A DNA stretch of 55,375 nt, taken from contig CAZAXT010000001.1 of the NCBI GenBank assembly GCA_964489295.1, positions 1 through 55,375 on the forward strand, given 5' to 3'. The notes below the pieces were generated by a model that searched no databases, had not been told where the DNA came from, and worked only from the letters and a program-made list of their open reading frames with translations. The position numbers and the translations under genes are program-made. The stretch is from an uncultured Candidatus Saccharibacteria bacterium (GTDB lineage: Bacteria > Patescibacteriota > Saccharimonadia > QS-5-54-17). This document shows, in pieces, positions 31,889 through 43,123 of this stretch; the first letter of the stretch is position 1, and each line of letters begins with the position of its first letter.

Positions 31889-32020
31889 ATGTGTGGATCG
31901 AAGACGCAAAACGCAACATTTGGACTCAAGACTCGTGAAACAGCTCGCGGATCATATGCGAGTGTTGCTTCTTATGCCGTGGCGCGTGTTTCATGTACGG
32001 GTTTTGGAGGTCAGATATGA
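31889..32020 (+). CDS. Candidate spacer-filling (bridging) small ORF, 43 aa, rplB>rpsS
   Basis: ATG 1 nt after the rplB TAG, with GAGGAAG upstream; TGA overlaps the rpsS ATG (ATGA); [43 protein letters not shown]. Confidence 0.3.
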
Positions 32021-33885: not shown

Positions 33886-34133
33886 TGGCCAGAACAATGA
33901 CAGGCAGAGTCGTATCCGACGGCATGGACAAGACGGTAACCGTTGCGGTCGATCGGGTAAAGATGCACCGGATTTATCAGAAACGGTATAAAGCGACCAG
34001 TACGTTTCTGGCCCATGACGAGGATAATGCCTGCAGCAAAGGTGACCGGGTGACTATCGAAGAAATGCGGCCGTTAAGTAAGCGGAAACGGTGGCGCGTA
34101 AAGACGATCGTCGAAAAGGCACAGTTGGTATGA
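33885..34133 (+). CDS. rpsQ: 30S ribosomal protein S17
   Basis: 82 aa; [16 protein letters not shown]...HRIYQKRY. Confidence 0.95.
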
Positions 34134-34498
34134 TACAGCAGGAAAGCCGTCTCAAAGTAGCCGACAACAGTGGAGCGCGCGAGTTGCAATGCATCAAGGT
34201 GCTCGGGGGTAGTAAACGTCGATATGCTCGGTTGGGCGATGTATTTATTGCCAGCGTTAAATCCGCCACACCCGGTGCAGCTATCAATAAAAAGGACGTG
34301 GTTCGCGCGGTCGTGGTGCGCTCCAGCGATATTACCCAGCGACATGACGGCTCATCGATCAGATTCGACGAAAACGCGGCGGTCGTCATCGATTCAGGAA
34401 AAAATCCGCGCGGAAGTCGTGTATTCGGTCCAATTGCCCGTGAGCTCAGGGAGAAAAAATTCGGCAAAATAATTTCGCTGGCGCCGGAGGTTTTGTGA
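34130..34498 (+). CDS. rplN: 50S ribosomal protein L14
   Basis: [16 protein letters not shown]... ends ...IISLAPEVL at a TGA, the canonical L14 C-terminus; ATGA overlap with rpsQ. Confidence 0.97.
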
Positions 34499-34605
34499 TG
34501 AAAAATTTCAAGCTGCGCGTTTCAAGTTTAAGACATAAGAGTCCGGCGCAGACCGAGAGTCGTCCGATGCCCGTCGGCTCGGGCGTCCAAAGGGGGCGAG
34601 TATGA
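34498..34605 (+). CDS. Candidate spacer-filling (bridging) small ORF, 35 aa, basic, rplN>rplX
   Basis: ATG overlaps the rplN stop (TGATG); GGAGG at 34486-34490 with 7-nt spacing; TGA overlaps the rplX ATG (ATGA); [35 protein letters not shown]. Confidence 0.4.
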   Translation: MKNFKLRVSSLRHKSPAQTESRPMPVGSGVQRGRV

Positions 34606-34922: not shown

Positions 34923-35467
34923 GTCGATTACTGGAACACTACCAGAACCAAGCTATGCCGGATCTGCAGACGCGGTTGGGGATAAGCAATGTGCACCAGG
35001 TGCCGCGGATCGAGAAGATCGTGTTAAACGTAGGGGCCGGACGGGCTATCCAGGATTCGCGTGTACTTGAAACCGCGGTGAACACCCTGGGTAAGATCAC
35101 CGGACAGCAACCGGTCAAAACCAAGGCCAAACACAGCGTTGCCGGGTTTAAGTTACGACAAGGGCAGCCTATCGGTGTCAAGGTTACACTGCGTGGTGCG
35201 CGGATGTACGAATTTTTGGACCGCTTGGTAACGGTGGTGTTGCCGCGAACCCGGGATTTCAGAGGTTTGTCAGAGAAGTCGTTCGACCCCGATGGCAATT
35301 ACAGCCTCGGTATTGCCGATCAGAGCGTTTTCCCTGAACTTTCCTACGAAGATTCACAAATTACCCACGGTTTGCAAATCAATATTATAACCAATAGCGA
35401 TCCTGAGCAGTCATACGCACTGTTATCCGCATTAGGGTTGCCGTTCGAAAGGAGCGATGATGGCTAG
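34919..35467 (+). CDS. rplE: 50S ribosomal protein L5
   Basis: 182 aa; [11 protein letters not shown]...[17 protein letters not shown]. Confidence 0.96.
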
Positions 35468-35642
35468 GAAAGCACTGTGGATCAAGGCCCGGAAAACCAA
35501 ATACCCGACCCGCCAAGTCAATCGGTGCAATCGCTGCGGCCGCTCCCGCTCCTATATGCGCCAATTCGGTTTGTGCCGAATATGCTTCCGTGAACTGGCC
35601 AGTCAAGGTAAACTGCCCGGAGTAAAGAAAGCGAGCCGATGA
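35457..35642 (+). CDS. rpsN: 30S ribosomal protein S14, zinc-binding type Z
   Basis: 61 aa; CNRCGR...CRICFRE zinc-ribbon cysteines. Confidence 0.93.
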
Positions 35643-36030: not shown

Positions 36031-36102
36031 ATGCAAATACGAGCTATAAATCACTGGAACAAAATTTGTATATCGGAGAACAACCGGAAGGAGCGATCAT
36101 GA
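36031..36102 (+). CDS. Candidate spacer-filling (bridging) small ORF, 23 aa, rpsH>rplF
   Basis: ATG 2 nt after the rpsH TAG; TGA overlaps the rplF ATG (ATGA); MQIRAINHWNKICISENNRKERS. Confidence 0.25.
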   Translation: MQIRAINHWNKICISENNRKERS

Positions 36103-40503: not shown

Positions 40504-40617
40504 ATGCAACACGCAACACGCAACACGCAACACGCAAAGCAAGCAATAAACGGACAGTTCGTTCCGTATTGGCTATTTCCTGTTGTGTGTTCCACGCGAT
40601 TGAAAGGAGCGTTGTAA
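40504..40617 (+). CDS. Candidate spacer-filling (bridging) small ORF, 37 aa, rpsK>rpsD
   Basis: GGAGGA 9 nt upstream; ATG 3 nt after the rpsK TAG; TAA overlaps the rpsD ATG (TAATG); MQHATRNTQHAKQAINGQFVPYWLFPVVCSTRLKGAL; its 5' third is encoded by the heptamer array. Confidence 0.35.
   Translation: MQHATRNTQHAKQAINGQFVPYWLFPVVCSTRLKGAL
40506..40533 (+). repeat. Tandem heptamer array (GCAACAC) x4 plus degenerate units to about 40547
   Basis: Read directly: GCAACAC GCAACAC GCAACAC GCAACAC GCAAAGC AAGCAAT. Confidence 0.9.
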
Positions 40618-42579: not shown

Positions 42580-43004
42580 GTACGTACAACCAGAAGCCGG
42601 CCGAAGTCACCCGGGATTGGTATATCGTTGATGCGTCAGGTATTACATTGGGACGACTCGCTACGGTGGTGGCCGAAAAACTGACAGGAAAACATAAACC
42701 GACCTATACGCCGCACGTTGACGGCGGGGACTGTGTGATCGTCATTAACGCTGCTAAAGTCAATGTGACCGGCAAAAAACACACCGACAAAACCTATCAC
42801 CGCCACTCCGGCTACCCGGGCGGCTTGAAAACCAAAAACTTTGAACAGGAAATTGCCCAGCATCCGCAGCGGGTCATGTACCGCGCGGTTGCGGGTATGC
42901 TACCGGATAATAAATTACGCGATCAACGCTTGAAACGGTTGAAGGTATACAAAAGGGGAGAGCACCCCCACACCGCCCAACAACCCACGGAGCTACACGT
43001 ATGA
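42576..43004 (+). CDS. rplM: 50S ribosomal protein L13
   Basis: 142 aa; WYIVDASGITLGRLA...KPTYTPHVD.GD.VIVINA. Confidence 0.95.
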   Translation: MSTYNQKPAEVTRDWYIVDASGITLGRLATVVAEKLTGKHKPTYTPHVDGGDCVIVINAAKVNVTGKKHTDKTYHRHSGYPGGLKTKNFEQEIAQHPQRVMYRAVAGMLPDNKLRDQRLKRLKVYKRGEHPHTAQQPTELHV

Positions 43005-43123
43005 GCACGAAAGAAGTGCTAAACCGGCCAGTTTTTATCAACTTTATAAAAAGCGTTATCAATCCATGTTGCAAATTGTTTGTTGCATGTTGCATACGAC
43101 GAGAAGGAGCATATCGTGGCTAA
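43001..43123 (+). CDS. Candidate spacer-filling (bridging) small ORF, 40 aa, rplM>rpsI
   Basis: ATG overlaps the rplM stop (ATGA); GGAG 8 nt upstream; TAA lies at +5..+7 of the rpsI GTG (GTGGCTAA); MSTKEVLNRPVFINFIKSVINPCCKLFVACCIRREGAYRG. Confidence 0.35.
   Translation: MSTKEVLNRPVFINFIKSVINPCCKLFVACCIRREGAYRG
43067..43094 (+). repeat. Heptamer array TGTTGCA-AATTGTT-TGTTGCA-TGTTGCA
   Basis: Read directly; the core TGTTGC is the complement of the GCAACA core of the array at 40506-40533. Confidence 0.7.

Follow-up and report, generated by a model that had tools for sequence, protein, structure and literature searches.

The window analysed here is a stretch of 55,375 nt from an uncultured Candidatus Saccharibacteria bacterium, and it carries a string of ribosomal-protein genes. 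The genome it belongs to (G000 below) has an assembly of 624 kb that is 88% complete. Between the genes for ribosomal proteins L14 and L24 lies a short open reading frame that touches both of them, and which we call the relay ORF. The features of this junction are as follows.

34130..34498, + strand: rplN (L14, 122 aa; stop TGA at 34496-98), from the ORF list and Pfam PF00238 (E = 5.7e-49)
34486..34490, + strand: GGAGG, 7 nt 5' of the relay ATG, within the final rplN codons (GCG CCG GAG GTT TTG TGA)
34498..34605, + strand: relay ORF, 35 codons plus stop; its ATG (34498-34500) lies on the rplN stop (TGATG) and its TGA (34603-05) on the rplX ATG (ATGA)
34499..34601, + strand: lineage-specific 103-nt insertion between rplN and rplX, not present in the same-genus genome G001 or in most of the family
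34592..34596, + strand: GGGGG, the new Shine-Dalgarno (SD) motif of rplX, 5 nt 5' of its ATG and within the final relay ORF codons
34602..34922, + strand: rplX (L24, 106 aa; ATG at 34602-04), from Pfam PF17136 plus KOW

Run SRR9010614 was assembled independently by Logan, and that assembly (locus L112) has the identical stretch, with the relay ORF predicted by its gene caller; an assembly error is hence unlikely at this place. What the original prediction had read from the junction agrees with the sequence: GGAGG at 34486-34490 is inside the last codons of rplN, the ATG at 34498 follows it by 7 nt and overlaps the rplN stop as TGATG, and the sequence and the ORF list both give a 35-codon open frame whose TGA overlaps the rplX ATG as ATGA. 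The encoded peptide is basic, as claimed, with nine K/R/H among its 35 residues.

The same prediction had taken GGAGG as a consensus SD that supports the ORF. The motif is present, but it is not independent evidence, since it is fixed by the conserved Pro-Glu-Val codons of the L14 C-terminus. GGAGG is found at the rplN 3' end in all examined relatives but G008 (which has GGAGA), with or without a spacer, and in the spacer-less genomes it is the SD of rplX; the SD of the relay ORF is therefore inherited. Read against the spacer-less genomes, the relay ATG occupies the position of the ancestral rplX ATG, behind the ancestral rplX SD.

The genes for L14 and L24 were placed in 28 genomes of relatives, as well as in Logan/JGI contigs from close relatives (the Logan contigs come from runs SRR9010614 and SRR26668033), and the operon was annotated in full, from L3 to SecY, in 69 sequences. 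The two genes are normally adjacent, as had been supposed: some 60 other operons of the class have rplN overlapping rplX (as TAATG or ATGA) or set no more than 13 nt before it, against 103 nt in the window. There are only three further exceptions with a spacer.

L113 (Logan contig): closest relative of the window (L14 99% and L24 91% identical); spacer of 85 nt; 29 codons, MSNFKCKGLFQMKAPFLMPVNTYRRGGRL
G004 (another genus of the same family): spacer of 109 nt; 37 codons, MPAAKFKVLGFSVMEVISPAVPCKLATKAPNGYEVQA
L123 (JGI contig): L24 77% identical; spacer of 133 nt; 46 codons, MRAPRRELAIEHPGLATYPLAQGSRDEPVMYCFFSSRSVDERKELV

Each of the three has an ATG on the rplN stop, from which the frame continues unbroken to a TGA that overlaps the rplX ATG. 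The four rplN-rplX spacers (85-133 nt) are thus bridged by an ATG-initiated ORF in four out of four cases, and their sequences are mostly unrelated. The observation that was to decide on the original prediction, a spacer that is absent or closed in close relatives, turned out both ways: the spacer is absent from most of them, including same-genus G001, which counts against it, and is open wherever it is present, which counts in its favour. A metagenome scan for L14 returned just generic L14 genes, with an identity of 71% at most.

A tree built on S17, L14, L24 and L5 places G000 and L113 as sisters; their sister group consists of G001 (no spacer) and L123 (spacer), and G004 is sister to L121 (no spacer). 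Because spacer-less genomes are set between spacer-bearing ones in this tree, at least two, and probably three, independent insertions at the rplN/rplX junction are indicated. One of them can be seen directly by comparing L123 (1064-1204) with L002 of G001: at the rplN/rplX ATGA, L123 has 137 nt more, cleanly inserted and bounded by TATGA direct repeats, and the flanks are nearly identical (a handful of mismatches). Judging from this alignment, the L123 insertion is a recent insertion or an insertion polymorphism, and it is already read through in frame.

The relay peptide itself finds hardly anything. The 35-mer has no match in Pfam and NCBIfam, and a phmmer search of 1.84 billion representative proteins returned the peptide itself and two borderline matches to long repetitive proteins. 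A search for homologues in related genomes, as had been proposed, was equally empty: six-frame searches of the 20 nearest genomes (all seven family members included) found the query alone. Even between G000 and its closest relative L113 (whose version has 29 residues), only about 11 positions are in common, comprising MxNFK in the first five codons, MPV and the SD-encoding end. At the nucleotide level, four-fold degenerate sites in the flanking genes of these two are 76% identical, and the spacer interiors are 71% identical, which equals the 71% obtained for shuffled sequences with the same gap-permissive aligner; by this measure the interior is not alignable above random. The two spacers differ in length by 18 nt net, a multiple of three. 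The G004 and L123 peptides are unrelated to that of the window, and the L123 peptide is near neutral (eight K/R/H versus seven D/E).

It was suggested that the ORF encodes a genuine basic micro-protein associated with the ribosome. An ATG with an SD and an open frame, nine K/R/H in 35 residues and the ORF call in the independent assembly are what one would expect of such a gene. We nevertheless consider a functional basic micro-protein (ribosome-associated or other) highly unlikely: the peptide has no homologue, the closest relative encodes a different 29-codon version, the spacer is missing in G001 and in most of the family, and the syntenic ORFs of G004 and L123 are unrelated to it, the L123 peptide not even keeping the charge.

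The architecture is not restricted to rplN/rplX. Ribosomal-protein genes of the family form a chain in which the stop of one overlaps the start of the next (TAATG or ATGA). Where genes of the operon do not overlap, they are only a few bases apart (up to 31 nt), and the exceptions are 13 long spacers, of 65-133 nt, found at four junctions.

rplB>rpsS: G000, G001, G005
rplN>rplX: G000, L113, G004, L123
rpsH>rplF: G000, G001, L114, L117, L119
rpsN>rpsH: G006

All 13 contain an ATG frame beginning between -3 and +6 from the upstream stop. In 12 out of 13 its stop overlaps the downstream ATG as ATGA (the remaining one ends in ATGGTAG), and in 13 out of 13 the last 20 nt contain GGAGG, AAGGAG, GGGAG or a similar motif. 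The peptides have 23-46 residues, and different lineages have unrelated ones even where the junction is the same. Short spacers (20-35 nt) are mostly not bridged (two out of 14 are). In the window there are six junctions with a verified bridging ORF, plus a partial one at secY>infA; besides the relay ORF of rplN>rplX, they are the following.

31889..32020, + strand: rplB>rpsS, 43 codons; ATG 1 nt past the TAG, TGA on the rpsS ATG (unrelated ORFs of 40 and 42 codons occupy the same register in G001 and G005, respectively)
36031..36102, + strand: rpsH>rplF, 23 codons; counterparts in G001, L114, L117 and L119
39625..39726, + strand: rpmJ>rpsM, 33 codons; begins at an ATGA and ends at a TAATG
40504..40617, + strand: rpsK>rpsD, 37 codons; GCAACAC x4.6 inside
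43001..43123, + strand: rplM>rpsI, 40 codons, ending two codons into rpsI; a period-7 array inside

How often would such frames arise by chance? In our null model the ATG is kept fixed, each spacer is replaced by dinucleotide-preserving shuffles, and the probability is multiplied by one third for phase. For the rplN-rplX spacer of G000 taken by itself, a frame that is open and in phase has a probability of about 0.12-0.16, so by this calculation the open frame is significant only through its recurrence in relatives and at other junctions. Values per spacer range from 0.02 to 0.2, and their product over the 13 family cases is 1e-15; these cases come from related lineages and are hence not 13 independent trials. 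With six origins only, and the most lenient value for each, the joint chance under the same null is 6e-8. Spacers of this length (65-133 nt) are testable only in the family, other families providing a smaller and noisier sample.

As a second reference we used the rest of G000, which has 64 gaps of 60-140 nt between co-directional genes (by crude gene calls); a bridging ORF is present in six of them, even by a generous criterion. The six bridged gaps (70-133 nt) lie at C4:~7056, C12:~3698, C13:~7877, C14:~6383, C16:~7265 and C16:~12344, and the bridging ORF on C13 adjoins a CGTGTTG x5.7 array. Being outside the ribosomal-protein string, they may represent further relay ORFs in other operons.

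These numbers bear on the simplest alternative, a non-coding insertion whose frame is open by coincidence or as a by-product of the way it arose. A single spacer would be open often enough by chance for this to work, and duplication of the ATGA gives both overlaps for free. Against it, the frame is open in four out of four spacers at this junction and in 13 out of 13 in the family, compared with six out of 64 in the background (joint chance no greater than about 6e-8), and it has been held open despite indels and an interior that cannot be aligned between G000 and L113. We therefore regard a non-coding insertion as very improbable. The claim of the original prediction is accordingly to be divided: its bridging ORF is more than a chance open frame, as all spacer-bearing relatives hold it open in the same register, and for that reason it is probably translated; the micro-protein function attached to it is not supported.

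An RNA element is another way to account for the insert. Fold prediction for the G000 spacer, which is more stable than its shuffled versions (z = -2.06), gives two hairpins.

34478..34551, + strand: predicted hairpin in which GCGCCGGA (34481-88) pairs with UCCGGCGC (34542-49), with an inner stem of 34491-97 with 34534-40; such a fold would enclose GGAGG and border on the relay ATG
34558..34601, + strand: predicted GC-rich hairpin, specific to G000, of 34594-99 (part of the rplX SD and the following bases) with 34560-65

Pairing of GGAGG and of part of the rplX SD is what a cis-regulatory RNA might do, be it a ribosomal-protein leader or a switch that sequesters the SD of rplX, with the ORF incidental or acting as a regulatory upstream ORF. 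But the fold is not conserved: the other three spacers fold no better, or worse, than their shuffles (z = +0.5, +2.4 and +1.6), no sequence or structure common to the four rplN-rplX spacers was found, and Rfam gave nothing relevant at the gathering threshold or at E-values up to 10. The missing Rfam match and the unconserved folds rule against a structured RNA, and we consider the cis-regulatory reading very improbable. An operon break between rplN and rplX was also rejected, as neither a promoter-like site nor a plus-strand terminator was seen between 33800 and 35000 of the window.

Translation of the spacer might also serve to shield it from Rho-dependent termination or RNase attack, and not to deliver ribosomes to rplX. 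Spacer translation would serve either purpose, and the architecture as such does not tell them apart. The Rho RNA-binding domain (PF07497), however, was undetected in eight out of eight family genomes (of which five have a completeness of 96% or more), with nine control genomes positive, which makes Rho polarity unlikely as an alternative driver; and the exact placement of the stop on the next start, in 12 out of 13 cases, is a need of coupling and not of protection. We regard shielding as an extremely unlikely reason for the frame.

As to where the inserts come from, a dispersed mobile element was tried and rejected. A sensitive blastn search with the G000 spacer over all 624 kb of the assembly recovers the spacer alone, in a single copy, and the L123 insert has no match in 41 related genomes and no resemblance to the other rplN-rplX spacers. 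Tandem duplication of the rplX 5' end or the rplN 3' end did not gain support either: three spacers compared with their own flanks behave like shuffles (p = 0.17-0.94), with the first 12 nt as a possible exception. The relay and rplX starts do look alike (ATGAAAAATTTCAAG versus ATGAAAATCAAG).

Tandem repeats of period 7 are enriched in the 13 family spacers (summed score of 71 versus 39.2 ± 3.5 for shuffled sequences, z = 9.1), and no other repeat period exceeds z = 2.3. In the rplN-rplX spacer of the window they are the following.

34519..34542, + strand: degenerate 7-nt tandem units GTTTCAA/GTTTAAG and TAAGACA/TAAGAGT

The G004 spacer has GGTTTTA x2 at the place that matches 34519-34542 of the window, and other examples are GAAATTA x3 (G005), TCAGGTG x2 (G006) and CAAGGGT/CAAGGGA (L123). 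Two further relay ORFs of the window have arrays recognised by Tandem Repeats Finder, GCAACAC x4.6 in one and another array of period 7 in the other. It is plausible, from these repeats, that the inserts grew by slippage of heptamer units. As 7 is not a multiple of 3, such slippage would constantly threaten the frame, which makes its conservation more telling.

Heptamer arrays are common in this genome. Those of the window are at 40506-40537, 43065-43095, 31904-31917 and 34519-34542; genome-wide, the 624 kb of G000 contain 49 arrays of period 7 with 2.5 copies or more, a number far above that for periods 6 or 8. Only 16 out of the 49 are inside long ORFs, although about 87% of G000 is coding (by crude calls). 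Many of the units have an AGTAT/ATACT or a GCAACAC/GTGTTGC core in common. The arrays recall the STRR repeats of cyanobacteria. They also recall the TAACTGA repeats of Beggiatoaceae (PMC4679880).

We also sampled 40 further operons outside the family from the 150 class-wide L14 matches listed; SecY starts were left unscored in these, being too uncertain. Apparent L5>S14 spacers in other families proved to be an artefact of the N-terminus of long-form S14, and were excluded as controls. (S14 of the window, at 35457-35642, is the short zinc-type form of 61 aa, and the protein is longer in many of the other families of the class.) Bridged spacers occur outside the family as well: G060 has a 70-nt rpsH>rplF spacer with a 22-codon bridging ORF, G304 a 229-nt spacer filled by a 71-codon ORF whose stop is 12 nt before rplF, and G365 a 350-nt spacer filled by a 118-codon ORF.

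In G318, also of another family, there are two 130-nt spacers (rplW>rplB and rplX>rplE), with bridging ORFs of 43 codons. The 130-nt element (L161, G318:C1; 3602-3731 and 7625-7754 in the oriented sequence) has exactly two copies in the genome, about 80% identical and each bounded by AAGTAATG. From the sequences of the two copies, it seems that a relay cassette was copied from one junction of the ribosomal-protein operon to another. A different solution is seen at rpsH>rplF of G254 (L188, another family), where a 197-nt spacer has no filling ORF; it contains a terminator-like hairpin (CTGCCGCGTAATGCGGCAG, then a T run) followed by promoter-like boxes, and by these signals it is an operon break.

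The reading we favour, and hold to be likely, is that the relay ORF is a relay cistron, which would preserve termination-reinitiation coupling across the insertion: that it is translated matters, and the peptide does not. Its marks are present at the locus, namely a stop/start overlap, the downstream SD in the 3' end of the ORF, and an unconserved peptide with a conserved frame. The 103-nt insertion, probably grown in part by slippage of 7-nt units, would have parted rplN from rplX. A ribosome that ends rplN at the UGA of 34496-98 would then restart on the overlapping AUG at 34498, cross the insert on the relay frame (melting the predicted G000 hairpins on its way), stop at the UGA of 34603-05, which lies over the rplX AUG and near the new SD, and restart on rplX. 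We infer, from the frames and overlaps, that ribosomes translate the relay ORF and that rplX needs this for its expression, the coupling being what selection maintains. Two points count against this reading. If an ATGA or TAATG junction is duplicated on insertion, a start-on-stop and a stop-on-start arise automatically, and only phase and openness need selection. Also, each relay ORF is followed by a good SD, so that rplX could be initiated independently, and coupling is perhaps inessential.

A stronger version of the relay reading can be put forward only tentatively, and we rate its chances somewhat below even: hand-over of ribosomes along the whole ribosomal-protein string would be near-obligatory, inserts would survive only as exact stop-to-start frames, and slippage would keep creating them. 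If hand-over is obligatory, the operon would amount to an experiment, run by nature in replicate, on the distance that a ribosome can cover after termination, and it would also be a breeding ground for translated de novo ORFs.

In E. coli and H. volcanii, termination-reinitiation coupling is nearly lost at a spacing of about 20 nt (PMC10666635), and it is disputed whether long intercistronic gaps are crossed by 70S scanning or coupling is by strict termination-reinitiation (PMC10666635, PMC12548453). Every tolerated insertion of 65-133 nt in the ribosomal-protein operon of the family has become a frame that restores two stop/start overlaps, which supports the notion that distance kills coupling, and suggests a heavy reliance on coupling in these reduced genomes, in which Rho is undetected. 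For annotation, the rule would be to treat small ORFs of this kind as probably translated, but not as protein families. Relay ORFs would also be examples of translated (by inference), unconstrained ORFs from which new genes could arise. Among the best-ranked matches of our literature search, no work ties translational coupling to Saccharibacteria or Patescibacteria.

[quoted passage not shown] According to the account of Supply et al. 1997 given in PMC12548453, MIRUs insert at start codons, with their ORF coupled at -4. MIRU ORFs are likewise short intercistronic insertions in operons, in which the ORF overlaps the flanking stop and start and the cistrons are co-directional, and insertions of both kinds would be tolerated since their ORF keeps the downstream gene translated. 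MIRUs, as described in the same account, are dispersed repeated units; the rplN-rplX insert is single-copy in its genome, and it is unrelated to the inserts of other junctions. The only repeated relay case seen is the two-copy 130-nt element of G318, in another family. Relay inserts differ from MIRUs also in their 7-nt-unit signature, their Saccharimonadales host and their site in the ribosomal-protein operon.

Rickettsia palindromic elements are dispersed, palindromic, selfish in-frame insertions inside genes. They resemble the relay insert in surviving by keeping the frame open; the relay insert, by comparison, occurs once, between two genes, and has no palindrome that is conserved.

Short ORFs that solely drive a coupled downstream gene (Shell et al. 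2015) and the leader cistron of the synthetic bicistronic design (Sun et al. 2021), both as cited in PMC12548453, share with the relay ORF an SD for the target in the 3' end, a stop over the target start, and a peptide that is irrelevant. Leader cistrons are at the 5' end of the transcript and self-initiated, whereas the relay ORF is coupled at both ends and links essential genes. The motifs at both relay ends are those of ordinary ATGA/TAATG overlaps (Huber et al. 2019, PMC6728339; 2023, PMC10666635), and the operon likewise encodes subunits of the same complex; but ordinary overlaps join two functional genes directly, and the relay ORF is a non-conserved filler that restores two overlaps across 103 nt. 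What is new compared with MIRU ORFs and leader cistrons is thus a single-copy cistron, coupled at both ends, in a ribosomal-protein operon, and recurrent at several junctions with unrelated sequences.
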